NCBI RefSeq assembly: GCF_036588685.1
Contig: NC_086385.1
Location: 15,399,216 to 15,463,215 of the forward strand
Origin: Mytilus trossulus
Taxonomy: Eukaryota
DNA: 64,000 bases
Reading direction: 5' to 3'
Below, piece after piece: positions 3,616 to 63,905 of the stretch. Each line of letters starts with the position of its first letter. The first letter of the stretch is position 1. The notes beneath the pieces were generated by a model, which searched no databases, was not told the origin of the DNA, and worked only from the letters and a program-made list of their open reading frames with translations. The translations under genes and the position numbers were made by a program.

Positions 3616-3964
3616 TATGATTGTCTTTGGAATCAGCTGAAAATAGAAAGAAGAAAAAAAAACTATAATAATTCAAAATGGTTTACCTTTGCATTGAGCA
3701 TATTTGTAGACTATATCACATCTATTCGTTGTGGTCTTAATACAACTTTCACATTAGCTAACCCACATGATGTATAGTATTTTGCTCACATAATACTATG
3801 ACAGCTAAATGAACGTTGAGCAGAAGGAATTATTTGCGAATTATTCTGGGATAGCCATTGTAACGAATTATATTTTCTGGCTGGGGTTCACGGAATAGAG
3901 AATAATAAGCAAACAGTTAACAGTTTTACTTGTTCTATTTGTATCCATCTGATAAGTTAAGCCT

Positions 3965-10370: not shown

Positions 10371-11020
10371 AAAAAAAACACGGGGGATATAAAAAAAATA
10401 TAAGAAGATGTGGTATGATTGCAACTACTCATATGAGACCAAATGAAACAAAAATTAACAACAATAGATCACTATATAGGTCTCCAAACGGCATTTGATA
10501 ATGATCAAAACCAATACAGCATCGTCAGCTACATATATATAAAAGGCACCAAAATGACAAATGTAAAACAATTAAAATCGAGAAAACTACCGACCTAATA
10601 TTTGTAAAAAATAATGAAAGAAAAACAAATATGTATCACAGCAACACATACTAAATTACATGGCGTTGTCAGTTTATTATCGATCTATGCGTTTGAATGT
10701 ACCTCTAGTATCTTTCGCCTCTCTTTTACAGGCTCTTGACTTAGGACAGACACATACATTTAGAGAATGTGACAGGAATAAACATATTATTAATGGGATC
10801 CCAACCCTCCCCTAACCTGTGACAGTAGTGAAGAGTTGTCCCATTGGCAATCATACCATATCTTCTTTTTTATATTAACAATATATGTTCTTGCCCAACA
10901 ATATTTATTTATAAAATAGGGGAGAGATGACTCAGTGCACGCAGGAATTGAAGTGAATGACTGGGTGAGGTGAAACGACGTATTTTAATGTATAATTCTT
11001 TTATCATTGTAGTGGGTAAA

Positions 11021-12760
11021 ATGACAACAGAAACACAAGAAATCATATGTGGACCATGCGACTTTCGAGAAATTGCAATGCCAGCAGTCGTATGGTGTCC
11101 GACATGTGATGAAGGACTGTGCGACGAATGTAGCGGCCATCATAGCGCAGCGAAGGCCACGAGAGGTCATAAACTTATAAACAGCGACCACTATAAGGAA
11201 ATGCCGAGAAAAATGATTGAAGAGTTAAACAAATGTACTAAACATGACGAAAGGTACGAACTCTTTTGTCCAAACCATGAAATTCATTGTTGTGTACAGT
11301 GCGTGAAAGAAAAACATGCAAACTGTACCGGGGTAACGCTACTCAATAAAGTCATTGAAAACATTAAGTCGTCCGCCATGGTTTCAACAATTACGCAAAA
11401 GTTGGATAAAAGGCTAGATGGACTTATGAAACTTAAGAAAAATCGGACGGAGAATATCGATCGCCTTGATAAACAGTCGTCAGAGCTGTGCGCTGATTTT
11501 AGGCGCATGCGTAAGGAAATGGATCTCGTTCTAGATGAATTTGAGAATACTTTGAATGAGCAAGCAACGTCAGTCAGGAAGACACAATCCATTATTGTAA
11601 ACAACTCCATTACTCAAATTTGTACACATGAGTCTATTTATAAAGAAATGCATTCTGGTCTGCAGACGGTTCTAGCATACGGAAGTGACTTTCAAGTATA
11701 CTCAGCGATTAAAAAGATCGAAGAAAATATCATGAATGAAGATAAAAAAACTGAATTGTTTTTAAAAAACAACAATGGTTTACAAGAAATAAATGTTGCT
11801 CTCGAATGCAGCCAACAGTTGTCTGCTCTGCTGTCTAAAGACATTTCGCTTGCAACGGTCAGGACATCTAATTCCACTTTAGCATGCGATTTGAACATAT
11901 TTGACAATTTAGAAGCACAAAAACTGTCAACAACTAATAGGACCGCCGTGTCAGAATTGAAATTAAAGCAGTTTTTCCAAGCAACTTCACGTTGCTGGTC
12001 AACCAATTCCGTACCTCCCGATTTTATAAACATTACAAGCATTGTCCCTTTGCCTTCTGGACAGACTGTCATGACCGATTATGGAGGTAAGCTAGGTATC
12101 CTGCTTTTCAATAGTAATGGTGGTTTAGACATCAGGTATGACAACCTAGGTACACCGCATGGTTCATGCCTGATTAGTGATTCTGTTATTGCAGTGTCGT
12201 TTCCTTTGAACAATAATATTAAATTATTACAAGTTTACGGTTTGTCTTGTACAATAAAGAACACTTTTAAATTCGATCAAATGTGTTTTGGTTTGTGTGT
12301 GAATTCGGACGGAAACATTGTAGCTGCTACAAGAAAACCTGATGACGGTTTACTTTTAATAAATTTAAATGGAGAAATTTTGAAGCGTATTGGTTTAGGA
12401 CTGCCATTGATCAATTATGTGCAATGCTGCAAAAACAAAATAATTGTAGCCGAACTCGAATCAAAAGAAATTACTATGTATGACCACGAAGGAAATAAAA
12501 TACAAACATTTACTTTCGAAGGCGAACACGATACCAGAAACATCTGCTTTGATAAACACGGTAATATATTTGTAAGTGCATTGCAGACAGCAAAAGTTAC
12601 CGTAATTTCAGAGAAAGATGACCATAGGCAAGATATTTTGGGAATTACGGATAGGTTTCGTGGTCCAAAGGCAATTGTTTATGATCAGAAAAATAACACA
12701 ATTATAGTTGCAAATAAAGACGGGCAGCATTCTGCTATTTATGACATTGTTTACAAGTAA
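11021..12760 (+). CDS. RING-less TRIM-like protein (B-box1 + B-box2 + coiled coil + NHL-like beta-propeller), 579 aa, single coding exon
   Basis: B-box1 CGPC...WCPTCDEGLCDECSGHH...H; B-box2 CTKH...FCPNH..CCVQCVKEKH; coiled coil; propeller (NICFDKHGNIFVS, GPKAIVYDQKNN). Start set to ATG 11021, after the acceptor TTGTAG at 11012; the ORF track's GTG start at 10970 is probably intronic. Confidence 0.9.
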   Translation: MTTETQEIICGPCDFREIAMPAVVWCPTCDEGLCDECSGHHSAAKATRGHKLINSDHYKEMPRKMIEELNKCTKHDERYELFCPNHEIHCCVQCVKEKHANCTGVTLLNKVIENIKSSAMVSTITQKLDKRLDGLMKLKKNRTENIDRLDKQSSELCADFRRMRKEMDLVLDEFENTLNEQATSVRKTQSIIVNNSITQICTHESIYKEMHSGLQTVLAYGSDFQVYSAIKKIEENIMNEDKKTELFLKNNNGLQEINVALECSQQLSALLSKDISLATVRTSNSTLACDLNIFDNLEAQKLSTTNRTAVSELKLKQFFQATSRCWSTNSVPPDFINITSIVPLPSGQTVMTDYGGKLGILLFNSNGGLDIRYDNLGTPHGSCLISDSVIAVSFPLNNNIKLLQVYGLSCTIKNTFKFDQMCFGLCVNSDGNIVAATRKPDDGLLLINLNGEILKRIGLGLPLINYVQCCKNKIIVAELESKEITMYDHEGNKIQTFTFEGEHDTRNICFDKHGNIFVSALQTAKVTVISEKDDHRQDILGITDRFRGPKAIVYDQKNNTIIVANKDGQHSAIYDIVYK

Positions 12761-16418: not shown

Positions 16419-18308
16419 CCTCGTGCAGAAGGTCGCGTGTTCGAACACCGGTCCGGTCAAACCAAAGACTTTAAATTGGTATTTGCTGCTTCTCTGCTAA
16501 GCACGCGGCATTAAGACAGAAGCCATAGCAATTATTAGTCCACTCGGAATCCCAATCCATGTATAGTAACGTGTCTTCATATGGCTCACCTTGTGAACTA
16601 GTACGTTATATTCCGGCTAAGCATGTCGGTCTAGTTCAAACAGGGTTAATATATCTATTTAAAAAAAAGATGATGTGGTATAATTGCAAATGAAACAGCT
16701 CTCCACAAGAGACCAACATGACACACAAATTAACAACTATATATAGATAGGTCACCGTACGGTCTTCAACAATGATCAAAGCCAATACCGCATAGTCAAC
16801 CATAAAATGCCCCGAAATGATATTGCATAAACATATTCTTGTTCTGAATATTCATTTAATTCGCCGCTAAAATATTTCCAGCAATCCATCATCATAGTTT
16901 TTTGGGATATGTTTTCTCATTAATTTATACCCCACGCCTCCTTTTGTTCATATGAAATACTAATTATATTTAGCATAAAACTATCTAATAGAAAGCATTC
17001 TTGTTTCCTGACCTTATTTGATTAGTATCTAATACATAATTCTGTATTGACGAAACCATTCAATTTTGTATGCTTTAAAAGTTCAGTACTAAAATAAAAA
17101 ATGCCTACAAAAATCTAATCGCATTTGAAACCCTCCCCTTTATACTCGAACCTTTAAATTTGAAATGTTTAAGAAATGAATCGACTAGTTATGTTTTTGT
17201 TGGATACACATTTTGTGTATTCGGTTGTGACAACATTTCTCTGGTATCTTATTTCAAGTTGTGAGAGCTTCACATTTTTGTTTATTGTTTAAAATTTATT
17301 GGTGCATTGATTTAATTCAAATAAACAACTATCGATTTGTTTTAAAAAATGTGGGTTTAAACAAGTTTATAACTTTTAAAACATTAAAACAAATATAACT
17401 TTGACTTAAAAGTTCGAAGATTTTGTGAAACGGCATTTGTGAGGTTCGTATATTACTTAATTTTTATTTGTTTATTGAACTTATTTCGTAGTTTAATATA
17501 CATAATCTTATCTGTATTATTTTTTATTAAGGACTATTTTCTAAAGATTTGCTCTCAGCTTTTTTGGCTTGCGTTTTGGGCATGAGCTCTCTTTTCGCCT
17601 TTTCTTTCTTGGGGTTACGACCCATGCTAATTAAAAGAATTCTTTATTAGTGTATTCCCATTAAAGAAAATTTAAGAAATATTCTAAATTACACAATAGA
17701 AACAACAGAAAAGAGCGGTGATTTAATTTTTCGAAATTTAATGTACAAGTTTATTTTGTTGATTTGACATTCAATACTGGTGGGGAAAAACAAATCAACT
17801 GTTTGCTCAGTGTAGAAGGCCGTACGGTGACCTATATAGTTGTTAATGTCTGTGTCATTTTGGTCTTTTGTGGATAGTAGTCTCATTGGCAATCATACCA
17901 CATCCCCTTTTTTATATTATGTAACCTTAACATAAAATTTTAAAACAATTGTTATAAAAATATTTTACAAACGATTAGTAAACGCAGACTTGCTGTTGAT
18001 TTTAACGGGATAACTACTTGATTCTTATTCGTCAGATCACAGGCCACTATATGCTACTAAGTTTTGTATCTTTTTTTGCTCTTTCTCGAAATAGCCTATG
18101 CAGGTTAGTTTAAATATACATGTTGTTCCTTCACATTTCTAATTTCACACTTGAAAATAATTTATGCAGATTTAAAAATATATACTGTCTATTGAGTAAG
18201 AGAATCGATGATGACTATTTCAACTAATTTTGTATAAAAGAGAATTCATTTATTGTATAACATTGAAATGCTCAATTTTGTTTTTATTTCAGAACTTGAT
18301 ATTTCAAA

Positions 18309-20390
18309 ATGGCTGCTGTTTTGAAAGCAGCGAAAGAACAATTGATATGTCATCTTTGTAAACAGATATTGGTCGAACCAAAAACTTTGAACTGCATGCA
18401 CTCGTTTTGTAAAAAATGCATTCAACAATATATGGAACATACAACAAAGGGTCAGAAAAGCCCTGCTGGATTTCTCTGTCCAGACTGCAACAATGTTATG
18501 CCACTCGGACAGCTTTCAGGTAGTACACCCGAGGCGTGGGCGAGTGAACTCCAAACGAATGAAGCGTTATCTAGTATTCTCAAAGCATTTGAAAATTCAG
18601 GTGAAGAAATTGCAATGAAATGTGCTTTTCACGCCGAGAAAGAAGTTGAATTTTACTGTGAGGATCATGAAATGCTTCTTTGCTCTTTGTGTGCTACGTT
18701 AACACACAAGCCGTGTACTGACGTTGTCACTATTCCTGTAGCGGCTGCTCGACGAAAAGCAGATGGCGGGAAATTTATTAATTTCCTTTCAGAACAAATT
18801 ACAATGACCGAGAAAATTTTAAGTGATAGAAAAGAACAATTGAGTACTCTTGACAAATCTGAAACTGAAATAAAAAATCAATTGACTCAGATAAAGAAAC
18901 GTATGATCGATTATCTTGAATCAATGGAGAGTAAAGTTATACAGGAAATGACGCAGCGGAAGATGAAAGAAATGCATGCGTTAAAATCTGACCTTGACAT
19001 TTATAATGGAATACTTGTCGATGCTACGTCTTCCCTAAAAACCATACAACAATCGATTGATAAGGACACACCAGCTGGCTTTATCATTCGATTTAAAGAT
19101 CAAGTGCAAATGTTTGACGAGAGACAAACAAGATTAGTAAGACACGTTCAAACGCTTAAGAACGTGAAGCTTACATTCCTCCCTAATCGACCGCTCGAAC
19201 AAGCTGTGGTCCAAGGAAAACATATTGGTAGTTTGAATACAGAAAGTTTTCCAAGCCGTTTAGCTCAGGTTTATGCGAAAGCCGCTCCCATTGAAACACA
19301 ACGTCCTACACTTACTAGACAGGGGACGAGCAAGGCACGACCATATTCTGGTGTGTCCACTGCAGCCCCTACACCTCGCTCGGTCCGGAGTACTACAGAC
19401 ATGCCGTCTTTCAGGAAACCAAATGTTCCACGTCAAATCCGTTCTCGAGGACCTAGGGAATATTCTAAACAAGAAAATGAAACAAAGTCGGTCATTTCTG
19501 ATGTCTCTTCGCGAATTTCCGAGAAACCAGCTAGCGACCTGACGCAGTCAAAAGCAATGGAACTCTCCTCTGTAGAGGGAAAAACAATTACGGCTAAATT
19601 TAAGAGTGACTTCATCGCTTCTGTACCTGATCAAAAGGAATGTTCATTAGAAGGAGCAGCCATTTTGAAATCGGGTCACGTGGTTTTGTCCGATTCGTAT
19701 CACAGTTCTCTTAAGCTGTTCGATCCCAAATTTGCATATATTGGATTGATAAAGTTTGCCACATCACCAGGCGATGTATGCGCAGTCGGTGACAGCGAAG
19801 TGATCGTCTGCTTACCAGACACGATGCGTCTGAAGCATGAAAAAATTGAGAACAATAAAATAGTACCAGGTGAAGTTCTAACGGTTGGCGATAAGTGTCA
19901 TTCAGTAGGCTATAATAACGGAACACTTGCTTGCTGTTCCGGTCGTACCATTCACGTTTTTGCCCGTGACAGCCATTCATGGCTCCGAGTATCTACAACG
20001 CCAATGGACGCAGATAATCTGATGTATATTGCTGTCGATCCGAATGGCGAAAGAATTGTGGTAACTAGAAACGGATATCCGAACCGTCCTGTCGTCTGTC
20101 TTACGAAAAATGGCCAAAAAGTATGGAGTTACACTCACGAGGAACTTCGTCTGCCACGAGGTGTCGCTTTCCTCGGACAGAACGTACTAATCGTTTCGTG
20201 GGACCAGCAGAAGGTAATCCAGCTCAATAGAGAAGGGCATCTCGAGGGAGTCGTTCTTCAGCAAGGCGTTCAGTGGCCATGGAAACTAGCAATTAGTCCA
20301 AAGGGAGATAAACTGATGCTCACACAATGCTATTATAGACTTCCGTTCAAGGACAAAAACTGCGTAAAGGTCTACAAGGTTAATCTGTGA
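18309..20390 (+). CDS. TRIM-family E3 ubiquitin ligase (RING + B-box + coiled coil + disordered linker + NHL-like beta-propeller), 693 aa; paralog of the 1600-3615 gene
   Basis: RING CHLC...NCMHSFCKKC...CPDC; B-box CAFH...FYCEDH..LCSLC; C-terminal motifs shared with the first gene (WSYTHEELRLPRGVA, VSWD, WPWKLAI). Acceptor TTTCAG at 18292; AATAAA at ~20495. Confidence 0.92.
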   Translation: MAAVLKAAKEQLICHLCKQILVEPKTLNCMHSFCKKCIQQYMEHTTKGQKSPAGFLCPDCNNVMPLGQLSGSTPEAWASELQTNEALSSILKAFENSGEEIAMKCAFHAEKEVEFYCEDHEMLLCSLCATLTHKPCTDVVTIPVAAARRKADGGKFINFLSEQITMTEKILSDRKEQLSTLDKSETEIKNQLTQIKKRMIDYLESMESKVIQEMTQRKMKEMHALKSDLDIYNGILVDATSSLKTIQQSIDKDTPAGFIIRFKDQVQMFDERQTRLVRHVQTLKNVKLTFLPNRPLEQAVVQGKHIGSLNTESFPSRLAQVYAKAAPIETQRPTLTRQGTSKARPYSGVSTAAPTPRSVRSTTDMPSFRKPNVPRQIRSRGPREYSKQENETKSVISDVSSRISEKPASDLTQSKAMELSSVEGKTITAKFKSDFIASVPDQKECSLEGAAILKSGHVVLSDSYHSSLKLFDPKFAYIGLIKFATSPGDVCAVGDSEVIVCLPDTMRLKHEKIENNKIVPGEVLTVGDKCHSVGYNNGTLACCSGRTIHVFARDSHSWLRVSTTPMDADNLMYIAVDPNGERIVVTRNGYPNRPVVCLTKNGQKVWSYTHEELRLPRGVAFLGQNVLIVSWDQQKVIQLNREGHLEGVVLQQGVQWPWKLAISPKGDKLMLTQCYYRLPFKDKNCVKVYKVNL

Positions 20391-22235: not shown

Positions 22236-25077
22236 CATGTATATATAAAATGATTGTAGTCCTGATGCTGCGGAAAGTTAAACGCGTCTTGTAAAATTAG
22301 TCGGATGTTTTATGGTTTATTAAAAAGAAACTTCATATGAGACCAATTCAAAGCCTTTCATACAAAGGCACAGCAATTTTCAGTCTATTTTTAAGGCAAA
22401 GTTTAACCTCAAAACGAGGTTTCTATAGAATTTCAAAACGTGATTAAAGATAGTTTGATATTGGAGATGCGTTTATGTTCCTTTTTCCTGTTGATTTAGT
22501 TAATATAGAATTAATCCGCAGCAACATGACACGTTTTAATGATCATTATCTATAGTAATCAAAAGATGGACTTGTCTTCATACAAATTATTACAGCTACA
22601 ATCAAACAAAAGGTTTCCGACTGAGTTTAAACTTAGCTTTATGGTAAAGGAGTGAATGAACTCTAAAACACAGCAAACATTAAAAAAATGGTATTAATTT
22701 AGTATGTCCTTAAGTTTCATACTTCAACGTGACATAGAGAGTCATGGGAAAAAGTAATCTGTTCAACTTGGACTTTTTTCTGTTTAATTTTAAAACATGT
22801 TAATAGATTTCGTGTTGACAGGTAAGTGAGTAATTGCATAGTTCTTCAAGAAGGTTTTACGGGAACCTACCAGATATGAGGCGGACGAGAGGATATCTTT
22901 TATGTTAAGGTATTTTATGTGATTTTGTACGTTTATTTCAAAATATAAGAGCTGTTTACAGTGTTTGACTAATTATCTGTTAACTGCTGTTTACAGTTTT
23001 TGACAAATTATCTGTTAACTTTAACTTAACATTAATGTTAACTGTTATACTATTGTGAAAAGAATGAATCTCGTTGAATGATTTAATCAAATTTTCAATT
23101 TATTTTTTCTGTTTTCGCATTTAAGATAAATTGAATTTCAGTTAACAGTATCTTAAGTGTATGAACCCCTTTTTGCCGCCACCTTATTGGATGCAGACGC
23201 GATTACGACATGTTTAACTACAAGAAATCGTAATGTGATTTAACAAAACTATTTCCCAAATATTGGCATTTAGTCTAAACAATTTCTGTTTTGTTTTAAA
23301 GATTAATCAAAACAGAACATGAAAATAATTCTCATTCGGGTCACACTTAAAAATATTTTGGTTTGCCCAATCCCTACCCTAAGGTTGAGACATTGGGTAG
23401 GTAGGTAGGCATTTTTTTTTTCAGATGTTTGTAAGTCTTCATGCCTATTTGATTAAAAACCCCTCTTCATATCAGGACAATAAAATAATTTGAGTAGGCA
23501 GCTTTTTCCTGGGTAGGTAGCGTTTGGGCAAACAAACCTATTATTTATTATGGCCTCGGTAGACAGTTTGTTTCACTTTTATGAAAATAAACTATAACGC
23601 TGATATAATGTCAAAATTGAAAACAATAGAGCCACCAGTAAGAACCATTTTACCGACAAATTGGGTAAATATAAAAATTATTGTGTTTTTGCAGGGTCAT
23701 GCAAACTATCATAGCAGCTACGTAGCTGCTATCAAAATCTATCTAGAAACTATAGGCTAGCTACACGTTCCATAGACAAAAATCTACGTAGCACTACTAG
23801 TGCTAGGTAGATTTTGACTATTGTTTGTGTAGCTATAGCTACGTAGCTGCTACGATATTGAACCCAACCCAGGCGCAGGTAAAAAGTAAAATTACAAAAG
23901 TACTGATTTCAAAGTCATAAGAAACCTCAAATTAAAAAAAATATGCATATGTTTTTTATAACTAAATGGATAGTTTTCATTATACAACTTATGTCCATAT
24001 ACTTTTTTCTGAGGATTTTTTTTTAATTTGTCCACATTTAGAAGAAGTTTACTTGTTTTGAATTGCTTGCTTCCAGGAAGCAATTCGCCGACATATTTTC
24101 CGTATGCATAGTGACCCGAGCATAACCCTCCTCGTAAAAATCCGGTGAACACAATACGCATGTATCTGTCATTGAAATAAACAAATATCTGATTAAACAT
24201 GTTAAACACGTAAACCACTCGCTCGTTTCATATGACTTTAACATATTTTTTTTTATATATGACAAGATATCAAATATATATAGTCTTAGAGAAACGTCAT
24301 TATATACTATGATATATTGGATAAGCTTGTGTGACTATTTATATCTATAATTATATTTGCGCTGTAAGAGTGACGTCACTTGACGATCGGTAGTTTTCGG
24401 ATGCAATTTCGGTGCTGTAGTTGTCTGTCTTAAAATATACACAAAATCTTGATATTTTTATAACCATTTGTATGAAATGTTTAACTGCTTCTAAATGAAT
24501 TGTGCATATTGGCTCAAATGTCCAAGTATGGTATGTTCGACTGTGAACCCTTCACTCAGCTCAAATGTCCAAATATGGTATGTTCGGCTGTGAACCCTTC
24601 ACTCAATGTCTAAAACAACCGCGAGTTATAGAGACAGTCAACTGTGGCAAATGGTCATCAACCCAAAATATTTTAAAGAACAAATCACATTAAGACTCGA
24701 CTGTTCGGGGACATCTTGATTTACCTCCATGAGGACGACTCAAAGCCGAAAGCCAAGGATATATAAGACTCGAAACAGTTGAAGAGCTAGCTATATGACA
24801 AAAAAAGTTCTTAAAAGTGGATTATGATTTGTTAAATTTGTTTGCTGTTCATGAGGACCTGTATCGAATAAGGTAAAAGGTAGTTTGAGAATATGGTAAA
24901 CAATTCAATTATTGTAGTTATTTCTATTTGTTAGACTACGTTGACCGAAAAAAATGAATCATCAAACAAATATTTTTCTTTTGTTGAAACATTAATTAAA
25001 TAAGAGAAAATGATCATACATTAGCTCAGATGGAAAAACTTTCGATAGATCAGATAAATCCAGTAAAAAGTAAAAAC

Positions 25078-26290
25078 AGAAAATTCACTCACTATATACT
25101 GTTGGTGTTAATCCACGAGGGATGAGTGCCTTAACTAATAACTTGATATGGAAAAGAGTTATTCTTACAACTGCACTTTATGGATGTGAAACTTGGGGTC
25201 AGCTACCCTACCGTGAAACTGAAATGTTGGAAATAACTCAAAGATATTTCGTCAGATTTATACTAATGATGGATAAACGTAGTCCGACTGACTCTTGTAT
25301 TAGTAATGTTGGTTTGTGGTCTGTCGAAGGATATACTGATAAAATGAAACTTTTGTTTTTTGGGAGACTGTGTCGTGCAAAATCGACAACAATACATAAA
25401 CGGATGTTTAATTTTCGTATGGGACAAATATTAACTGGTGAGGCCAGTCAAATTTCATTGACTTACGATTATATCAAAATTTTGATAAAATATGATTTTG
25501 ATTCTTTTGTTGAAAACTTTGTGGCTGAAATTTTTTTTCCAGACAAGCTACTGTGGAGCAAAATTGTAAAACAGACTTTAGACATATACGAAGAAAACAA
25601 ATGGAAACACTCAGTTGAACGGCGACCAGAACTTAAGCGGTACCATAAAATACATACTTGTTTGACGGAGCATCGTTTGTTACGACTAGCGGTAACTTAT
25701 CCATCACTAAATTCAAAATTTATGACGCTTGTGAAATTAGGAGCCATAGCTATTCAAACAGGCAAATGCTCCTTGTGTAACTTATATAATACGGATATAC
25801 TTATGCATTATATACTTTGCTGTACATCTCTTTTACAAATTCGGACAGAAATGTTCTACAAAATTGTTGATATTCTTGACGTAGAGGATTCCGTTCGTTT
25901 CTTTAATCAAGATAATGACGAAATTGTCGAGTCGTTACTTGGAAGTATGAATCATACCATGCAAACTATAAATAGTGATGTATGGAGCCTCTTGATGTGC
26001 CACATAGCAGATTATATGTATAAACTATATCAGGTCTTCAATTATGATCTTTATAGTCACATATTTGATCTTAACTTATGTTGTTCTTGTATGAAGTTGG
26101 TGCATTATAGACGTTTTGTTTTTGACTCTATTTCCTATGTAATTATGTAACTACCTATAGACTTTTTTTATTGCTGTTTGTATACTTTGATGTTGTTTAG
26201 AATATGTAAATATGTTAGTGTTATGTTCTTGATTCTGTTCTTATAATATAAATTGTAAAATCTTCATATTATGGAGGAAATAAAGATAAT
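25078..26290 (+). mobile_element. 5'-truncated non-LTR retrotransposon (LINE): C-terminal, post-RT part of ORF2 (ORF 25122-26150) plus 3'UTR
   Basis: LYGCETW motif, KLLFFGRL, C-terminal CSLC...H.ILCC zinc finger; no RT catalytic motifs; frame open upstream to ~25077; ends with AATAAA. Confidence 0.82.
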
Positions 26291-31514: not shown

Positions 31515-32392
31515 GGGCGTATGACATTTGCGCCGATTTTGAAAATGTTCATTCTTTCATTTGCAACGATTTCATTTTTTCATTTGCGCCGATTTTATAT
31601 TTTTCCTAATTGGATTTACAGGTAAGTTACAGGTAAGTTCATACTTTTACATTAGCCGAGCACAGAGTATACAGACAAATCAAGTGACATTGCAATTGGC
31701 AAATGGCTATCCCAATGTTTCGGGTTACCCTAAATGAAATCGATGACTGCTTGTCGTACATTCTTAAACAACATACAAGTACACATTCCATAACAGTCAA
31801 CCAATTTGTGATGGCGTCCATAAAATTAACGAAGGGATAAATTCAACTTCACCATTTGGAACTCTTGGTTTAATAGCTTACTTGTGAGAAAATGCGAGCT
31901 TACTTGTGAGAAAATGCGAGCCCCCACAAGAACGTATGCCAGACAAAGAAAAGATGACCTTCGTTATTGACAATAACGCCAAAATATAGAAAAGACGAAA
32001 TCATAAGAAAGGAATATATTAGATGTGTTGCCTATACATACTCGGTAAGAACAGATTTATGATTTGAATGTATTCCGTATTTATGGATTTGAATGCTGTA
32101 CATATATTTTTAATTCGTCATTTAAGTATAAACAAAGTAAGGAGGAGACAACAGTTATATACATGTTATGATTGACAATTCATAACATGTACAACTGGCT
32201 AACAGAGAAGGTCTTTAATGATAAATGAAAATAACATTACTGGGATGGAGAGTTGTCCCATTGGCACTCATACCACATCTTCTTTTATCATTTCACCTGT
32301 ATTTACCTGTTATTTACCTGTGAAAAAATCGGCGCAAATGAAAAAAAAAATCGGCGCAAATGAAATGCAGATCGGCGCAAATGCAAAACGCC
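31515..32392. mobile_element. MITE with subterminal (CATTTGCGCCGAT) repeats
   Basis: GGCGTATGACATTTGCGCCGAT on the left, ATCGGCGCAAATG x3 + AAAACGCC on the right. A similar degenerate element spans ~14335-15045. Confidence 0.65.
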
Positions 32393-32485
32393 GGAGTAGG
32401 GGGCTTAGTCGGACTAACGGAGAGAGTACTTGTACTTGTAAATAATTAAATAAATTAATAAATTATAAATAAGTATTATCACCTG

Positions 32486-32959
32486 TGTAGCGGGGTTGTT
32501 TCCCTCAGTACAGGTAGAACATATGAAGCCAGTCTTAATCAACTGAGCTAGGGAATCGATTCTTTGGCTTAGTTGGTTAACGCACTGACTGTCACGCAGA
32601 CGACCGGGGTTCGTATCCCGGTGGTGACGATATGAATTTGTAGAGTAGATACGTGCTCTCCGGTTACATTTGGCGCCCAACTAAAATATCCACGATGGTT
32701 ATCTGGTGTATAGCCAGGGTATGTGTTGTTAAGAGTCATAAATAAAGATATGATGACTCTTGTGGTGGGGAAATATGTAGCAGGGTTGCTTCCCCTCAGT
32801 ACAGGTAGAACATATAAAGCCAGTCTTAATCAGCTGAGCTAGGGAATCGATTCTTTGGCTCAGTGGGTTAACGCACTGACTGTCACTCAGACGACCGAGG
32901 TTCGTATCCCGGTGGTGACTATATGAATTTGTAGAGTAGATACGTGCTCTCCGGTTACA
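32486..32959 (+). mobile_element. Terminal-repeat retrotransposon in miniature (non-autonomous LTR element) with a tRNA-Asp-like sequence in each LTR (Helenus-like)
   Basis: LTRs 32486-32668 and 32776-32959, both TG...CA, about 95% identical. PBS TGGCGCCCAAC at 32671-32681; purine-rich tract GTGGTGGGGAAATA before the 3' LTR; 4-bp TSD CCTG at 32482-32485 and 32960-32963. Confidence 0.92.
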
Positions 32960-33793
32960 CCTGTATTTACCTGAGTTTACCTTTCAAATAAATGCACGCA
33001 AATGTGTCTCATAAGCCTTTCTAGGCTGGGTATTTGTCTTATTTTATTATTGTGCAATGTATATTATATAAACTGTATAAACAATCTGTAGACAAGTATG
33101 TGACACTTTAATAAAATAAATTATTATTAATTTATTGTAATCAAAAGCTGCGCGCAAATGTAATGGTAAAGCGCGCAAACGTAATGCACTGATTAATACA
33201 CCTACACCTTATATAATTAGCTAATTTATAATATGTAATATCAAATTGTGTGTAATTAAACCATGGTGTAATCTATATTGATGACAAAGGTGTGATAAAT
33301 AAAATGACAATATTCAATAATTACCGAGCCTAACTGTTAACACAGTTATGGTCCTTGTCATTCGTTTAGCACCTATATACTTATTCATTATACTTACTTT
33401 CTATTATCCGTAAAACCTGACAGTATATTTATTATACGTATGTCATTCATATAGTTCACGATGTATTATAGATCATAAAATGGTAAGTATAGTATACATA
33501 CACTTATTCTTTATTATCAATTTTGATAATTGTTTTTAAAAGTCAATTGCCTACGCTGTATCCACCAATATCTGGGAAAGTTGTTTAAATTTAATTTTGT
33601 TGGGATTGTTTTGTTTTCATTTTTATTTTTGACAGTACCGGTCACTTATGATAGTGGATCTTAATATGGTTTCAGTGGCAATCATACCACATCTTATTTT
33701 AGAGACCTTGGTGGTCGAATGTTATTAGTAGTTTTATTTGTGTAAGAGAAATTCATTCAATTTTAAACCTTTGATGGTAGTTACAATTATGAA

Positions 33794-36852: not shown

Positions 36853-39609
36853 CTATAATATTATCTTTGGAATAATGACACGTGAAAAATAAAAAAAGGT
36901 AAGACCAGAAAACAAAATATTCCTATAATATATATAATTTTATTTATAGGGCAACCTGATATAACAATTATTTTACATACATTATCTATGAACATATTTA
37001 AATTATAATTCCGAAACTAAAAGCAGAAGTTAACCGCCGTCACGTTCATGAATGATGACGAATTTCATTATGGAACGCGGGAAGCACATTAATAGATAAT
37101 CACAATTTATAGAAGATAATAATAGTGTATCGGTCGACCATTAAAGATGCACGATATCTCTGACAAATATCATGCATTTTAAGATATTATGTTAATGTGG
37201 TAATGATATGAACCCTGTTTTGTACTGGAAATGCACGCCGAGGCTTGCCGAGAAACCCATTTTATAGATCACAGAGTAACAATATTTATTCAAATAAATC
37301 AACATTAAACGATATTATACAAATGAAATAATACTAAGGATTCAGAAACAAGCAATTTGCTTTCACACTCTTTTCTTTTACAAATTGAACAATACATAAA
37401 TATAAATACTGGCATGCTCTGTCATAAATATAAAAAAAAGCTGAAAGAAGAAGAAAGAAAAAAAAATAATGAGAAAAAAAATATAAAATAAATAAACATG
37501 AATTATTGTAATGTATACAGTGTAAAATGCATTGGTTCCTATTGAGTGATGAAGCATCATACATCAAGGGTTAAAACGTTTAATTTTTATACTATATTTC
37601 TGCACCAAACTAAATAAAAGACTATCAGAGGGTAATTATATAAAAGATATTAAGCAAAATGGCTGATTTTAGTAAGCATTTAAAAAATGTGCAATCAGAT
37701 TATGATTTTAATTTGATTATTAGGCATTTCCAATTTTTTTGCGGTTATTGATTTTACACAAACCTATTGATTTTCTTCTAATTATGATGTTTTTTTTCTA
37801 GTTCTGGCTCTTTAAATTCTTGCGTGTAGTTTTGTTTTGCTTGTTATTTCATATCATCCGTAGTTGTTGTACCAAATAGCTTATTATAAGGATTTTTGTC
37901 TAATTTTGACCGAAGCGGTACGAAGACTACATATGAGAAAAATAATTTCCCCTTCTCTATTTGACATAAGTGATACATTAATGTATAGCATGAATGGTAA
38001 GTGATAGATAACTAAGGTATATTGGTTTGGGGTATTTGGTTCAATATAGAGAAATTTGGGTCAAGGTCAAAGGTCAAGGTCAGATCTCCTCTGTCACTTG
38101 TAAAGATATGTATAGAAGAACTAGCGCAAAATGTTTGCCTAATAGTGATGAAGATATGATACATTTGGTCTGAAACAATCCAAAAACATCTTATATTGTC
38201 CATGGAATGATTCAATTTGAGATTGATTGATGCAACTCATAGGAGAGGGCCCTCATGGGGTTTTTGATTATGTGATTACTTGGCCGTTTTTTTAATGATT
38301 ATTTGATTATTAAGCCAAATATTTTATGATTATTTGATTACCTAGGACTGTATTTTTAGTTTATGATTATTTGATTACTAAAGATAAGCAAATATTTAAT
38401 GATTATGTGATTATATTGGCAAAAAAATGGTGATTATGTGATTACTAGGACCCCCCCCCATGAGGGGTTTCATAGGACTACAGCGTCTTTTGCAAACTGT
38501 TAGTTTACATACGACCTTGACCAATAACAACCGGAAGTGATCTTGAGTAAATAGGAAGTAACCGTTTTTGCACTTTTTTATATAAAAAAACCCTAGAAAT
38601 TATATATTTCCTAAATAAGCATACACAAACCAATCATTTGAGGCCAGAGGTGACCTTCAATAAACCGAAAGTTTATAATAGCTGCCTTATGTATAACAGG
38701 CAAATGTATATTGAAACCATATATTTTTGGATCTGTGTGAATAAAGCTATCATCTGAGGCCGGAAGTGACTTTTAAAAACCGGAGGTACATGTATGTATA
38801 GAAACATACATTTATTAAATCTATATGAAGAAACCTGTTCTTGGACGCCAATAGTAAATTTGAGTAAACCGGAAGTAGCTTTTCATCAGTAATTAAAAAA
38901 AATGTTGTGGAGACACATTCAATTGTTCTTTGAACAATTGGTTATTACTTAAGAACGATTCTCTTCTAATGACGGCTTATTCAATCTGATTTATGATGAT
39001 AAAGCTAGTTCATCTGTGAAATTATCCACTCACTTACACCCCTCCAAACCAAAACAACACTCCGTACATTAAAATCACCTGGCTAAATCATAGACATGTT
39101 CAATTTAAAAATGAGATTAACTCTTTCATGTCTAAAGTATAAGAAGTGTATAACTAGCCTGTTAACGCTGAATCCCGCACATACATGTATCAGGTGCGGT
39201 GCTCTCGACTCAAATCTATTTTTGTTTTCATGTCAGGTTTGATTTTTTTTCTTTGTACTACGTCTTCTTCACCAATGTAAAAATGGCAGCCACAAAAAAA
39301 CCCACCAATAATGCTAAAAGATGTGTTAAACATCATTAATCAATCAATCAATCAATTTTAAGCGTAAGCTACAAGTTTTTTTTTTATGTCAATTCTAAAA
39401 GGAAAATTAGTCAGCTAATTCTTAATTTTGCCGTATTACAAATTGCAAAACATAAAAAAATTGTGCATGAAATCCAAAATGTCCACAAGATGCTATGTTT
39501 AACAGCTCCCATTTTCTTTCATGTAAGTTTTATTTGTTTATTTCCTATTTTTTTTAGAAATCAAACTGCACTGGAACAGTAAGAAGATTGAATCTTCTAT
39601 TCCGAAATA

Positions 39610-40257
39610 ATGAATGCGAGTTCTACAGAAACAGGAATAGATTTTTATAAAAAAGTTGCTGCGCAGACTCCAGCCTGGTTTCATTACGTAACTGGTATCA
39701 TATTACTTATAACAAACATAGGATCTGTAGTAACGAATGGATCCGTTCTTATTGTACTACTCGTAAAAAGCCGAAAGCTGTTGATCCGAACTAACCTATA
39801 TATCGCAGCCATATGCCTCAAGTCGTTCTTGATGTCAGCTTTTGGTGTTCCAATGGTGGTCGTGTCGTGTTTCAATAAATGGTGGTTTTTCGGTGAAGCC
39901 GGATGCAAGTTCTACGCTTTTCTGATGTCATATGGCGGATTAGCTAATATGTTACTTTTGTGTATGATTTCCGTCGAGAGATACATTTATGTGGTAAGAC
40001 ATGGACTTTCACAACATTCATCTTCGACGTTCAGTATCGTTTCCATTACTGTATCATGTGCTATTGCTTTTGGTTTTGCCGTTGGTCCAATCGCCGGATG
40101 GAACCAGTACACGTACGAAGGCGTGGGAACGTCATGCGCAATGGACTTAATCGGAGAAGAATACAATGGCCGATCGTTTATGATAGCATTACTAGTCATC
40201 TTTTTTGTCCTACCTGTTATTATAATGACATTTAACTACGGATCAGTGTATGCTAAG
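39610..40257 (+). CDS. Opsin A (xenopsin-like), coding exon 1 (TM1-TM5)
   Basis: Class A GPCR features: W..GEAGCKFY (C110, Y113), ERY, GWNQYTYEGVGTSC (E181 counterion position and C187). Ends ...YAK|GTAAGT (phase 0). Acceptor at 39557 upstream, with an in-frame stop before the ATG. Confidence 0.9.
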
Positions 40258-40274
40258 GTAAGTTTTAAAAGATT

Positions 40275-40485
40275 AGATTTTATTGACTTTTGGTGTTTTA
40301 ACGCCACTTTTAAGCACTGCATTAAGAAGGCCGGAGTACCCGGAGAAAACCACCGACCTTCGATCGGAAACTGACAATCCTAGTCAATTAAGATTGGAGT
40401 CGAGTGCACTCGCAAGAGCGAGGTTCTTACTCACAACGTCAGTGTTGACTGGTTAACTACTTAAACCACTCGGCCCCCGAGGCCC
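40275..40485 (-). mobile_element. tRNA-derived SINE (V-domain-like) at the start of opsin A intron
   Basis: Minus strand GGGCCTCGGGGGCCGAGTGGTTTAAG (A box)...GTGGTTTTCTCCGGGTACTCCGG...GTGGCGTTAAA. Confidence 0.7.
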
Positions 40486-45368: not shown

Positions 45369-45923
45369 TTCCAAGGTTGTTGAGTCAGTGACACATAAAC
45401 TATTCACCAGAATAATTGATTTGGTAGAGGAGATTGGAATACCAAAAAAGCATGAAATTTGAAAAGATAGATCGAAAATGGTTCGTCGAATTCGAAAATC
45501 CACAAATTGAAAAATACACTCGCCTAACCTCAAAAGAATTATTTTGTTTTCTTGAAACTATCTTCTTTACATTTCAACCCGATTCCATTCATATCTATTG
45601 CGCATGTCTAAGTGAAATTGGCATAATTATGGTTTCAATTAAAAATTAAAATAATAATTAGATTGATTTTTGTAACTTCCTCTATTGTATATTAAATTTA
45701 GTATAAAAAAATGTGTTTTACTTGGTGTGTTAAATCAATGTTATAAATAGGATATAAAGTCTTTATTGCTTAGTATCTCTGGTGGAGAGCGGTCTCATTA
45801 ATTGACAATCCTACCACATCTTCTTTTTTTCTTTTCATTTTTGCATTATTGTGTATTGATAACACGTTATAAAAAGAAAAAAGAAATGAATTCTATCTCT
45901 CTTTTCATTGGCTGTATTTCCAG

Positions 45924-46402
45924 GTTTTTTCCTGTTGTGTTATTCACCCTACGCAATCTTGCTTCTGTGGAAACTAGCCGACAAAGACAGCGACATTGAT
46001 CCTATGTTAATGGCCGTTCCTGCCATGGTGACAAAAATCGGTGGAATGTTAACACCATTTGTTTATTTGGGACGTAATAAAACTATTCGGTCTAAAGTCT
46101 TAGATTTGTACGCATGCTGCAAATTAAGTTATACAGTTTCACCAGAGATTGATGACGAAGAACCACCTGAAAACCAAAAACTACAGTCAAAATCACGCAA
46201 ACTTAAAGCCATAATTAAAAATCTAACAAGTACAGAAATTAAATACAAGTCGGAAGAAAACACAGAAGGTCACCTAGTGTCAAAGGTTAATCCGAGTGGT
46301 AAATGTCAATCACTTGCAAGTATACAAAGCAATGAGGCACTAGAAGTGACGTCATCAAATAGACATTCAGAGTTTAATATAAAACAGTATACAACAGTAT
46401 AA
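45924..46402 (+). CDS. Opsin A coding exon 3 (TM6-TM7, helix 8, C-terminal tail); full protein 413 aa
   Basis: TTTCCAG acceptor; (G)FFLLCYSPYA TM6; PAMVTKIGGMLTPFVY TM7 with Lys at the K296 retinal-binding position; NKT at the helix-8 tripeptide; Ser/Thr-rich tail; TAA stop. Confidence 0.9.
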
Positions 46403-51662: not shown

Positions 51663-53300
51663 TTATTCATCGCAGATTATATCATAAAGATGGGCATCTC
51701 CCGATAAAGAATTACAGACAAGAAGTATCTCCTTATGGATATGTAACGCTGATGGCTTGTTTATACCATCATCAATGTCCAATAGAATCATATTATTTTG
51801 ACCATCTGGAGATAAAGCCATAACTGTGTCCGACCCGTGACATGTAACAAAGACAAATCGATTGTTGTCAATAGCAACTTGGTGAGGTTCCGATAAAAGT
51901 TCATGCTGGAATGTCCAAGATAGTTTTCCGAACTCTGTGCAACATATCACTTTGTTTTCGTTTCGATTTGAACAAAGAAACATATCATCATTCTGTACAA
52001 CATACGAATAGTTTTGTGTCGGAATTTGTATTTTCCGGGAAACATTTCCAAAAAAGTCCATAATATGAACTATCTTCGATTTTTCAAAGGACACTACTAT
52101 TTTATTGTTACTAAAATCGACACTATAGCAGTTTTCCTTCATTTGAATTTTTCTTATTTCTTTATCTTCACGCAGGTCAAGGACAACAAATAGGTTTAAC
52201 GACCACAAAGTAACTACTATTGTATAATCGTCAACAACGGCCATATCTGATGGTTGTCCGCTTAATTTTATGTTTCTACTATGAGTTCCATCCTTGTTAT
52301 GTATCACAAGTAGACTATTCTGAAAATCCGCAAAAACAATTTGCAATCCTGACAAAATAGCACACCCTGTTATCACCATATTGTGTTCACTTTTTATTTT
52401 TATATACTTGCGTCTTTTAAGCTTCAGTTGAGTTATCGTTCTTGGTTTCTTTTCTGTTGGTATTATGGAATTATTCGGCTTTAATTGGATAGAAATCGTG
52501 CCAAATGAATTTACTTCTTTAAGAATAGATAGTAACTTAGGTCCCATTGTCAATTCTAAGTCTACTTTACATAATTTGTAATCTTTTTGTAAAGACTGAA
52601 GTTCTGATTGGTCAATTTCTATTTGCTTCGACAATATTCTTACTCCTAAAAAGGCTTGTAGATCTGTAGCATTTTGGTTCACGAAAGAAAGATCCATATC
52701 AATCCGCTTCAACTCGGCGTTTTTATTACCCAATAAAGATAGTTGTTCATTCGTTTTTCTTTTGGCTTCACTGTGCTTGTAGTCTAAGTCTTCAACTATA
52801 TCTTTTTCCAAGTTATCAAAGTGTTTGTTTAAAGACCGTCGAACATGTTTAATTTCAAGCAATATGGATGATTTTCTATTGTATAAGTTTTCACAGTTTG
52901 TATTTGTATCTTTGATTAAATCTTCAAGTATATTGGACAGTTCTTGTACTTTTTGCATCAGATCTTTGAATGGAGTGGACTGTTTAAACTCCTTCACAAA
53001 TGATTTGAGAAAACTGATTCCTTTGCATAGTTTATGGTCATGTCTATAACATTTCATACAACACGGTGTATTATGCTCTTGACAAAACATTTCTAATTGC
53101 TGGCCATGAATTTCACACAAGTTATTCATCAATAAAGCACATTTGGGAAATTGAACATATTCCGATAGTCCCATGGACGGATGCTCTGTCATTGTTTTAT
53201 CATGTATTTGTCGACATTTCGTGCATAAAATCTTTTCGCATTCAATGCACCATATTATACCCAATCTATGTTCATGCGAAGAACAAAATATTTGTGACAT
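51663..53300 (-). CDS. RING-less TRIM-like protein (two B-boxes + coiled coil + NHL-like beta-propeller), 545 aa, single coding exon
   Basis: WCIECEKILCTKCRQIH and CEIH...FCQEH..CCMKCYRHDH B-boxes; coiled coil; propeller (EPHQVAIDNNRFVFVT, GINKPSALH). The ORF track's TTG start overlaps the TTGCAG acceptor, so the first ATG (53300) is used; candidate donor AG|GTAAGT at ~53996 (minus). Confidence 0.9.
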   Translation of the reverse strand: MSQIFCSSHEHRLGIIWCIECEKILCTKCRQIHDKTMTEHPSMGLSEYVQFPKCALLMNNLCEIHGQQLEMFCQEHNTPCCMKCYRHDHKLCKGISFLKSFVKEFKQSTPFKDLMQKVQELSNILEDLIKDTNTNCENLYNRKSSILLEIKHVRRSLNKHFDNLEKDIVEDLDYKHSEAKRKTNEQLSLLGNKNAELKRIDMDLSFVNQNATDLQAFLGVRILSKQIEIDQSELQSLQKDYKLCKVDLELTMGPKLLSILKEVNSFGTISIQLKPNNSIIPTEKKPRTITQLKLKRRKYIKIKSEHNMVITGCAILSGLQIVFADFQNSLLVIHNKDGTHSRNIKLSGQPSDMAVVDDYTIVVTLWSLNLFVVLDLREDKEIRKIQMKENCYSVDFSNNKIVVSFEKSKIVHIMDFFGNVSRKIQIPTQNYSYVVQNDDMFLCSNRNENKVICCTEFGKLSWTFQHELLSEPHQVAIDNNRFVFVTCHGSDTVMALSPDGQNNMILLDIDDGINKPSALHIHKEILLVCNSLSGDAHLYDIICDE

Positions 53301-53816
53301 GTCTTTTTCCGTTGCTTCAAGCTGCAATATATAAAATGGTTAAATATATTTCTTTATTTTTTCTTGCAATTTGATCTGTTTAGGAGAGTCGTCAATTTTT
53401 TTGCTCTATACATTTTTACCCTTTATTCTCTATTCTCTATCATCATTACCATGCACTTTAAAAATTCAAGGGCAGCGTTCCGACCAAAGTAGAGTAACTC
53501 ATTACATTAATAGTCATCAAAGGTACCAGGCTTATGATTTAAATAAAGGCAACAGTAGTATACTGCTGTTCAAAATTCATAAATCGATAGAGAAAAAACA
53601 ATCCAGGTTACAAACTAAAACTGAGGGAAACACTTCAAATATAAGAGAACTACGACACAACATTAAAATGTAACACACACAGAAACGAACTAGAATATAA
53701 CAATGTTCATTTCCCTGACTTGGTACAGGGCATTTTAAGATAAAACTGGTGGGTTGAACCTGGTTTTGTGGCTTGCCGAAACTCCCGCTTTAATGGTAAT
53801 GTTACTTACCATGAAA

Positions 53817-63006: not shown

Positions 63007-63645
63007 ATGACACTAAAAAGTATTAATAACCATCATGAATTGATAGCAGCACAGACACCTTCCTGGTTTCATTTCACTTCCGGTGTTGTTCTTCTAACAA
63101 CAACCCTTATATCTTTGATTTCAAACGGGTCCGTTGTTTTTGCCTTATTGATAAAAAACAGGACGTTGCTGACTAGGATTACGACCTATATTATAACAAT
63201 ATGTTGTTTGAACTTATTAATGGCAGCTTTTGGCACACCAATGGTGGTTATGTCCTGTTTTAACAAAGTATGGTTGTTTGGAGAATTAGGCTGTACTTAC
63301 TATGCCTTTTTGATGACATTTGGTGGTTTGACCTCTATGCTTCTTTTGACCTTGATTTCTGTCGATCGGTACATATATGTTGTAAGGCACAATTTATCCA
63401 AACATCTGTCAACCATGACAGTCATCATATCCATAACTGTATCCTGTCTCATTACGCTAGGCTTGACCATTAGTCCTTTTTTTGGATGGAACCAGTATAC
63501 ATATGAAGGAGTTGGTACCTCTTGCGCAATAGATCTTGTTGGAGAAAACAATAACGGCCAATCCTTCGTACTAACCATCTGTGCTATATATTTTGCTGTA
63601 CCAGTATTTTCGATGTTATTTGCATACGGATCAATTTATGCAAAG
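63007..63645 (+). CDS. Opsin B (xenopsin-like tandem paralog), coding exon 1; the gene continues beyond the window
   Basis: Colinear with opsin A exon 1 (AAQTP.WFH, PMVV.SCFNK.W.FGE.GC, DRY, GWNQYTYEGVGTSCA.DL). Same phase-0 intron position ...YAK|GTAGGT. Acceptor at 62975; the frame is open back to it, so an upstream coding exon is possible. TM7 lysine not visible. Confidence 0.87.
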
Positions 63646-63672
63646 GTAGGTACAACTATTCAATTATATATA

Positions 63673-63905
63673 TGTAACACTCAAACGTGTCAGATTCTCC
63701 TAAACGTGTCAGATTCTCCCAAACGTGTCAGATTCTCCCAAACGTGTCAGATTCTCCAAAACGTGTACGATTCCCCCTAACGTGTCCACATTGACATCAT
63801 TGAGCTGCAAAACATGTCTATTTATAAAAGGGCTCCAAAGCTTGTCATTTGTATAAACGCTCAAACGTGTCCATTTTTAATAAACATAAAAACGTGTCCA
63901 ATGCC
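63673..63905 (+). repeat. ~19-bp AAACGTGTCAGATTCTCC repeats at the start of opsin B intron (probable transposon end)
   Basis: Five to six tandem copies, then scattered AAACGTGTCCA. Confidence 0.75.

Follow-up and report, generated by a model that had tools for sequence, protein, structure and literature searches.

The closest described relative of the element analysed here is Helenus-3_MyGa, a family from Mytilus galloprovincialis with a 184-bp LTR, a 108-bp interior, a full length of 476 bp and a 4-bp TSD (Kojima 2024, Biology 13:119, PMC10886601). Its PBS is grouped under tRNA-Lys-CTT together with that of Gypsy-125_CGi (Fig. S2C, PMC10886601). The family is not one of the seven bivalve families drawn in the same paper as intact tRNA (Fig. 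S1), and the paper gives the Pol III function of Helenus as unvalidated. The published consensus sequences of several sister families (Helenus-1/1B/2_MyGa, -1_MyCo, -1_MoPh, -1_BaPl and -1_LimFor; PMC10886601) share with the element here the same LTR framework and an inverted repeat at tRNA position +1, called the foldback below. The mytilid sister families mostly also have the same LTR end, the Lys PBS and the same PPT-proximal motif; they differ from the element here in their palindromic centres and anticodon-loop remnants, and Helenus-2_MyGa has a tRNA-Ser PBS, unlike the tRNA-Lys PBS of the element here.

Other small LTR elements are comparable in part. Ajax, the 5S-type TRIMp3 of nemerteans (PMC10886601), is like the element here a TRIM with a Pol III promoter remnant, and in both of its consensus LTRs a foldback of 12-13 bp can be made out by eye before an A-box-like motif; it differs by its 5S boxes, tRNA-Leu PBS and 5-bp TSDs. 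The plant TRIM Cassandra (PMC7215508) also has a Pol III promoter inside each LTR, and its LTRs have been predicted to be self-complementary, so that the sense strand of the complete element would form a super-hairpin, which is a precedent for the foldback; it differs in being 5S-derived, in its plant host and in having another PBS, and the relevant passages of PMC7215508 make no connection between the pairing and the start site. Transcription by Pol III is reported for Cassandra but not for Helenus, and we found no experimental work on Helenus in the openly searchable literature. Biv-TRIM (Satovic et al. 2019, PMC6934838) is a further short bivalve LTR element without coding sequence, found in M. 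galloprovincialis among others and described with 202-218-bp terminal repeats, no canonical PBS and inverted repeats in the interior, a combination that the element here does not have. A working model for the foldback comes from the CYC5/CYC3 sequences of Ty1, whose long-range pairing of the 5' and 3' ends of the RNA is needed for reverse transcription and transposition (PMC3592414). However, Ty1 is an autonomous Pol II Copia element with CYC5 beside the PBS, whereas the arms of the element here meet at the predicted start site and their role is putative.

The element that we report lies in a 64-kb stretch of mussel DNA, referred to below as the window. It is very probably a complete but decayed copy of Helenus-3_MyGa, i.e., of a multi-copy, gene-less mussel LTR retrotransposon. 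Active members of the family are probably transcribed by Pol III from the tRNA-derived boxes, and a Gypsy element that uses tRNA-Lys as primer probably copies them in trans.

Anatomy and family of the element

The features of the element are as follows; all are on the plus strand.

32482-32485, +: left TSD CCTG, matched by the right TSD, with the empty-site 17-mer found elsewhere in the window
32486-32668, +: 5' LTR, 183 bp, TG..CA; differs by eye from the Helenus-3_MyGa LTR consensus at 7 positions
32520-32528, +: TATA-like stretch of the 5' LTR, 38 nt before the predicted +1, a candidate promoter element; 32525 is a private change of the 5' LTR
32535-32557, +: left arm of the foldback in the 5' LTR, at the end of the predicted U3; antisense to nt 1-23 of the tRNA-like unit, with pairing predicted out to ~32530
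32558-32580, +: right arm of the foldback in the 5' LTR, tRNA positions 1-23, beginning at +1 (32558), where Pol III is predicted to start
32565-32576, +: A-box-like motif of the 5' LTR, within the right arm of the foldback
32589-32618, +: tRNA-Asp(GTC)-like anticodon loop, variable region and T-loop, with the B-box at 32608-32618; A58 changed to T at 32614
32669-32775, +: interior, 107 bp; 8 substitutions and 1 gap relative to the 108-bp consensus (by eye)
32671-32681, +: PBS TGGCGCCCAAC, 11 nt, tRNA-Lys-CTT
32696-32716, +: first interior stem-loop, 7-8 bp, predicted; similar stems seen by eye in sister families
32731-32761, +: second interior stem-loop, just 5' of the PPT; arms AAGAGTCAT (32731-32739) and ATGACTCTT (32753-32761)
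32762-32775, +: polypurine tract (PPT), decayed; 2 substitutions and 1 missing base relative to the consensus (by eye)
32776-32959, +: 3' LTR, 184 bp, TG..CA; 7 differences from the consensus (by eye)
32811, 32856 and 32899, +: TATA-like stretch, A-box and B-box of the 3' LTR (A58T at 32905)
32826-32871, +: foldback of the 3' LTR, axis between 32848 and 32849, 22/23 pairs
32960-32963, +: right TSD CCTG

The element thus forms a complete, gene-less LTR element of 474 bp between two copies of CCTG. Its LTRs differ by 9 substitutions (6 transitions and 3 transversions) and 1 indel, a divergence of ~5% (K2P 0.051, BLAST E 7e-79). The interior is non-coding, and no ORF of at least 100 aa overlaps the element. 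A length below 1000 bp, two LTRs, a non-coding interior and a PBS and PPT at the interior ends (the PPT decayed) are the features of a TRIM. The GC content is 46%, compared to 31-35% in the flanks.

All of the main parts that the earlier note had read from this DNA are borne out: the sizes of the LTRs, interior and whole element, the differences between the LTRs, the flanking CCTG, a PBS complementary to tRNA-Lys-CTT over 11 nt, a purine-rich tract (though decayed), A-box-like and B-box-like motifs in each LTR, a TATA-like stretch ~40 bp upstream, and the stem formed by AAGAGTCAT and ATGACTCTT in the interior. Of its sequence details one needs correction, the structure being right: the 3' LTR reads GACCGAGG, not GACCGGGG. 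The anticodon-loop remnant CTGTCAC is found at 32589-32595, and the 3' LTR is altered one base later, at 32887. Private changes aside, the A-box-like motif fits the published description of the Helenus A-box, TRGCY..YGG.

Joining the flanks with a single CCTG reconstructs an empty site whose 17-mer occurs as an exact copy in the window at 32293-32309, which supports the TSD and would be expected had the element inserted into a local repeat and duplicated 4 bp. An allele without the element was not seen, i.e., no joint that skips it appears among the 15 joints listed in read contigs, and the 64-kb window holds no second copy. Its surroundings are rich in repeats. A RING/B-box gene (18300-20390) lies on one side and a 7tm_1 exon (39592-40374) on the other, and we found no link between the element and any gene.

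Compared by eye with the Helenus-3_MyGa consensus, the element is identical at 453/476 positions (~95%), with 177/184 in each LTR and 99/108 in the interior, and is in this comparison full-length in the sense used by Kojima (>90% identity over >90% of the consensus; PMC10886601). TSD length and the tRNA-Lys-CTT PBS are the same, while the length of 474 bp, A58T in the B-box of both LTRs and the damaged PPT set this copy apart from the consensus. Judged by this match, the element is a copy of the catalogued family, so that the family is not new as the earlier note had thought it might be. As in Helenus generally, both LTRs contain tRNA-like sequence with A- and B-box motifs and a 4-bp TSD stands on both sides, which supports the placement in this group of a non-autonomous LTR element with a tRNA-derived module. 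Membership in biv-TRIM, as that group is described, is ruled out by the 183/184-bp LTRs and the canonical PBS, and membership in Cassandra or Ajax by a module that is tRNA-like and has no 5S match in Rfam at E up to 10.

The family is present in many copies. In three DNA runs, each from a different study, 44, 69 and 43 distinct contigs cover position 32614 (contig depth is not copy number), and dozens of contigs per position were found in all three. The read evidence was drawn from 4 of 24 runs, these three and one RNA run. Among the rows listed in the read tables, other copies carry the consensus letter at at least 18 of the 23 positions where this copy differs. A metagenome scan for the LTR-PBS junction gave a single locus, L001, a decayed copy of a sister family that resembles Helenus-1_BaPl (by eye, against the published consensus) and has its own 4-bp TSD, CATT.

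Folding of the interior is only marginally better than that of shuffles on the plus strand (z -1.83; minus strand -2.63). In the second stem the right arm is conserved in sequence and lies inside a 14-nt block identical in L001, and the left arm varies, being rearranged in L001. Neither result lends support to the packaging signal that the earlier note had considered for the interior hairpin.

The tRNA-like module and the state of this copy

The tRNA-Asp origin proposed in the earlier note for the promoter module stands for its 3' part. When genome contigs were searched with the motif that runs from the anticodon loop to the T-loop, 23/23 loci were tRNA-Asp(GTC) genes; the same motif had 0 loci in viral contigs. 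It does not stand for the whole unit. Over its 5' 31 nt the module matches 20 eukaryote-type tRNA-Asp genes at no more than 11-14 of 31 positions, and other anticodon loops are seen, by eye, in the published consensus sequences of sister families that share its LTR framework. Given these two observations, comparison with tRNA genes and sister families indicates a module that is Asp-like in its 3' part and as a whole not simply a copy of tRNA-Asp. Position +1 of the tRNA was set at 32558 by the offset of the motif in the eukaryote-type genes, which is 31 nt; a count of 7 nt back from the A-box gives the same position.

No whole tRNA was recognized: ARAGORN found 0 genes in the window, and Rfam at E up to 10 returned neither tRNA nor 5S, with no match for the 101-nt core either. 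The tRNA covariance-model match to the LTR that the earlier note had proposed as a check was therefore not obtained; the Helenus definition does not require a match to a whole tRNA. Over the foldback, Rfam gave only two non-significant matches to miRNA hairpins (E 1.4 and 5.6), and on L001 one non-significant match to the minus strand (E 0.1). A functional tRNA-Asp gene is ruled out by the missing acceptor stem, the empty ARAGORN and Rfam results and the poor match of the 5' part.

Two differences from the consensus are common to both LTRs. The one at 32526/32817 is a common family variant, the consensus T accounting for only 8-45% of depth. The other is the B-box change A58T at 32614/32905, where other copies have A: it makes up 100% of depth at 32614 in 4/4 runs and 94-100% at 32905 in 3 DNA runs. 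In two runs the non-A depth at 32905 is close to the depth of the unique flank (6.5 vs 7.6 and 37.7 vs 37.9), which hints that the non-A remainder is this single locus. As A58T is found in both LTRs but is absent from the family, it looks like the product of one error, made either during one round of replication or in the parent copy.

A58 is a core position of the B-box. Because both B-boxes lack it, the promoter of this copy was probably weak or dead from the start, and the copy was likely dead on arrival. It has gathered 5 private changes per LTR and its PPT is damaged; it is likely old and inactive. A58T cannot be a family-wide signature of the reverse transcriptase misreading m1A58, given the A of other copies at 32614/32905; a one-off misreading of m1A58 in this copy is possible.

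A foldback centred on the predicted start site

Each LTR contains an inverted repeat without a spacer. In the 5' LTR, 32535-32557 pairs with 32558-32580 at 23/23 positions (5 of them G-U), and in the 3' LTR 32826-32848 pairs with 32849-32871 at 22/23. The axis coincides exactly with tRNA +1, a register that was set independently from the tRNA-Asp genes; moving the axis by 1-3 nt reduces the pairing score to 4-13. Only two plus-strand positions in the 64-kb window score above 19/23, and these are the foldbacks of the two LTRs. The earlier note had missed this 46-nt structure.

In predicted RNA folds the pairing is specific to the plus strand. Folding z-scores are -5.42 for the plus and -1.70 for the minus strand of the window foldback, and -4.80 and -1.44 for L001, whose intact LTR is paired at 19/23 positions in the same register. 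Neither window LTR nor the intact L001 LTR contains an A-C pair, and G-U pairs occur on the plus strand instead. Between the window and L001 there are 4 double-sided changes, and 94% of cells are paired, compared to 26-52% when the alignment is slid; this level of covariation was reached by 8 of 500 shuffles, in a comparison of two families with the structure drawn from the window sequence. The comparison is confined to two families because the scan for the LTR-PBS junction gave one locus. The 5' LTR of L001 has lost most of its left arm (12/23 paired) and was omitted from the alignment (A1). Three private changes fall within the arms of this copy, and all of them keep or improve the pairing, though the numbers are small.

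The published consensus sequences (PMC10886601) extend the observation to other families. By eye, 33 of 51 bivalve Helenus LTRs have the foldback, with the axis exactly at +1 in 22, a 1-nt spacer in 10 and a shift of 1 nt in 1; the families are related, so these counts are not independent. The centre varies by family and includes ATCGAT, AGATCT, AGTACT, GAATTC, GTTAAC and AATATT, among others. The 18 bivalve families without a foldback mostly keep the acceptor-stem pairing and include all 7 that are drawn as intact tRNA, from which it follows that the foldback is not required for Helenus mobility in general. Outside bivalves the foldback was seen in 3/3 nemertean and 2/2 coelacanth Helenus, in 0/3 from brachiopods and in 2/2 LTRs of the 5S-type Ajax (by eye, same source). 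The LTRs of cyprinid fish and several wasps that were seen have a different hairpin, wholly upstream of the A-box, and stand outside this tally, as do sturgeons and fungi.

We conclude that the start-centred foldback is a real, conserved feature. A word search of the main text of PMC10886601 found no mention of palindrome, hairpin, inverted repeat or TATA, and we found no description of the foldback in Helenus in the openly searchable literature, a scope that does not extend to Repbase reports, subscription journals and the figure images of PMC10886601. The foldback, apparently undescribed, is the novel contribution of this analysis; the element itself is one worn copy of a family published in 2024.

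Transcription, replication and the role of the foldback

In the mechanism that we propose, Pol III would start at tRNA +1 (32558) in the 5' LTR and read through the element. Such read-through is possible because the 474 nt contain no T4 run. A T4 run is also absent from 3.3% of window segments of equal length and from 10.7% of composition-matched shuffles, the latter figure making the absence weak evidence once composition is matched, and many sister LTRs do have T4 in U5 (by eye in the published consensus sequences). The lack of T4 also leaves the 3' end of the RNA undefined; the first T4 downstream is at 33042.

With a start at +1 the left arm would be transcribed only in the 3' LTR. There the first ~23-30 nt of the RNA are predicted to pair with the end of U3, so that the 291-nt unit would close as a panhandle and place the RNA 5' end at the U3/R junction, the landing site of minus-strand strong-stop DNA. 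This pairing of the 5' end with the U3 end recurs in the folds predicted for each of three unit RNAs (291, 299 and 314 nt). The end-to-end duplex (-29.7 kcal/mol) has nearly the same energy as the local hairpin (-28.0 kcal/mol), hence energy does not pick the panhandle. tRNA-Lys(CTT) would prime at the PBS and the PPT would prime the plus strand, and integration left the 4-bp duplication. Following the argument of PMC10886601 from the PBS shared with Gypsy-125_CGi and from the 4-bp TSD, the likely helper in trans is a Gypsy element. Reads from RNA give one contig of depth 3.8 over the LTR and none over the interior (1 of 6 RNA sets, contigs only).

By analogy with the end-to-end pairing of Ty1, the foldback may assist the first strand transfer by bringing the RNA ends together, a role that we put forward tentatively as the most probable of those considered. 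With similar reserve, we suggest that the Pol III-driven TRIMs of animals could share an undescribed replication element, i.e., an antisense copy at the U3 end of the first ~23-30 nt of the RNA, adjoining the start site, by which the transcript would close as a panhandle and pass reverse transcriptase from the 5' end to the U3/R junction. Compensatory and G-U changes would maintain it in bivalves, nemerteans and the coelacanth alike; it would survive exchange of the promoter (Asp-like, other tRNA 3' parts, 5S in Ajax) and would serve as an alternative to the intact cloverleaf.

Other readings accept the same element and give the foldback another role. It could act as a local hairpin, formed only upon transcription of the 3' LTR, and so mark the 3' end of the RNA, either by Pol III release or by a cut from a double-strand RNase. 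Such a hairpin would solve how one LTR sequence can start the RNA at the left and end it at the right; it is in keeping with a left arm transcribed only in the 3' LTR (if the start is at +1) and with the want of a T4 terminator in the Helenus-3_MyGa element here, and it would be stable (-31.9 kcal/mol, z -5.42). However, the left arm pairs about equally well with the RNA 5' end, and several foldback families in the published set also have a T4 run in U5; we regard this role as unlikely, though a serious candidate. Alternatively the palindromic centre may let two RNA genomes kiss and dimerise for packaging, in the manner of the retroviral DIS or the PAL of Ty1 (PMC3592414). In 22 of the 51 bivalve LTRs the arms meet exactly at +1, mostly in a self-complementary centre of 4-6 nt whose letters differ by family (by eye), and in the fold of the whole element both LTRs pair as a 46-bp duplex. 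Dimerisation is nevertheless an improbable explanation, since 11 of the 33 foldback families in the published consensus set have a spacer or a shifted axis and a 23-bp stem would conceal most of the centre. The panhandle, the 3'-end hairpin and dimerisation can coexist.

Two further readings question the promoter or the function. Genomic RNA might be made by Pol II from the TATA-like site, with the A and B boxes being remnants of a SINE or tRNA that had inserted, or being kept for RNA structure and not as a promoter. Both LTRs have a TATA-like stretch, and the conservation of the A-box could be structural because it lies within a paired arm of the foldback; Pol III would be halted within the 5' LTR by the T4 runs that many published families have in U5, and Pol III activity of Helenus is the point given as unvalidated in PMC10886601. 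We nevertheless consider transcription by Pol II quite improbable: although it is not part of the foldback, the B-box retains A58 in all other copies examined at 32614 and across the published families, the foldback axis follows tRNA +1, and the TATA-like stretch is missing, by eye, from some sister families. A TATA-like stretch at about -30 is, moreover, also usual for Pol III tRNA genes. Still less probable is that the foldback has no function and has simply been inherited from an old fold-back copying error. The foldback families look related around the A-box (by eye), and 18 of the 51 bivalve families in the published set do without it, but a copying error gives a perfect palindrome that decays equally on both strands, whereas here there are plus-strand G-U pairs and no A-C pairs, and the pairing is also maintained by double-sided changes. 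That the whole repeat is a chance local duplication or a pair of functional tRNA-Asp genes can be regarded as already refuted: the anticodon loop and T-loop do match tRNA-Asp genes, but against this stand the TSD, PBS, PPT, multi-copy reads and catalogued consensus, together with the missing acceptor stem, the lack of any tRNA call and the absence of the family from those drawn as intact tRNA in Fig. S1.

Coming back to the start-centred foldback as a replication element, a covarying structure centred on the start site is a precise target for mutate-and-rescue experiments. It bears on how LTR elements driven by Pol III start in one LTR, end in the other and make the strand jump. If our suggestion is true, a shared replication element would link Helenus and Ajax and would parallel the self-complementary LTRs of Cassandra, and the presence of the foldback in both Helenus and Ajax would question a wholly independent origin of these groups.

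Genes and the host repeat around the element

The copy of Helenus-3_MyGa, a small non-coding LTR retrotransposon, is embedded in a high-copy repeat that occupies window positions 31516-31602, 32291-32392 and 32960-33200. The host repeat contains 21-23-nt tandem units, which are present in inverted orientation ~750-800 bp apart, and it is possibly a MITE-like element; the target motif of the retrotransposon insertion is found again at 32293-32309. Elsewhere in the window there are opsin-like seven-transmembrane (7TM) exons, which belong to at least two genes, and four long single-ORF genes with a RING/B-box TRIM-type appearance, for only one of which (18300-20390) Pfam confirmed both domains.

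Genes and open frames in the window
1600-3672, -, long single-ORF gene with a RING/B-box TRIM-type appearance
10961-12760, +, long single-ORF gene with a RING/B-box TRIM-type appearance
18300-20390, +, long single-ORF gene with a RING/B-box TRIM-type appearance, RING and B-box confirmed by Pfam
25074-26150, +, 358-aa open frame, no Pfam match; presumably akin to the C-terminal region of an ORF from non-LTR retrotransposons
39592-40374, +, opsin-like 7TM exon, Pfam 7tm_1 (E 9.6e-26)
45890-46402, +, opsin-like 7TM exon, no Pfam match
51663-53339, -, long single-ORF gene with a RING/B-box TRIM-type appearance
62926-63780, +, opsin-like 7TM exon (the Pfam scan covered the other two exons only)

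Primer binding site and RNA-run signal

Within the primer binding site (PBS), position 32679 carries G instead of A in 40-55% of the family depth across the three DNA runs, a variant that might either pair with tRNA-Lys(CTT) through a G-U wobble or mark a subfamily or sister family with a different Lys primer. In the RNA run X17, a contig spanning the LTR end and the PBS (32654-32695) reaches a depth of ~226, compared to 3.8 for Helenus-3_MyGa, and its loose end matches, by eye, the sister family Helenus-1/1B_MyGa. It hints weakly at transcription of Helenus-1/1B_MyGa; the same depth might also stem from carry-over of DNA or from read-through.

Related copies and exchange of parts

A decayed Helenus-1_BaPl-like copy with the 4-bp TSD CATT lies at 571-1016 of a metagenome contig (L001), and through deletions its 5' LTR has lost most of the foldback's left arm together with the anticodon part. 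Among the tRNA-Asp genes from prokaryote genome bins (L002-L024), 20 of 23 look eukaryote-type, most of these on short contigs, and they probably represent eukaryotic contamination of those bins.

In the portion of the published consensus sequences considered here (PMC10886601 Data S1), the LTR of Helenus-3_PiIm from pearl oyster has the Asp-like loop and foldback in common with Helenus-3_MyGa, and the PBS of this family is a different one. This points to an exchange of interiors and tRNA 3' parts between families. The same portion includes two 5S-type Ajax LTRs (Ajax-1_NGe and Ajax-1_LiLo), both of which, by eye, have a 12-13-bp foldback upstream of a tRNA A-box-like motif; the core is similar to that of nemertean Helenus. 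Judged from these sequences, Ajax may be a Helenus-type LTR in which the downstream promoter was replaced by 5S.
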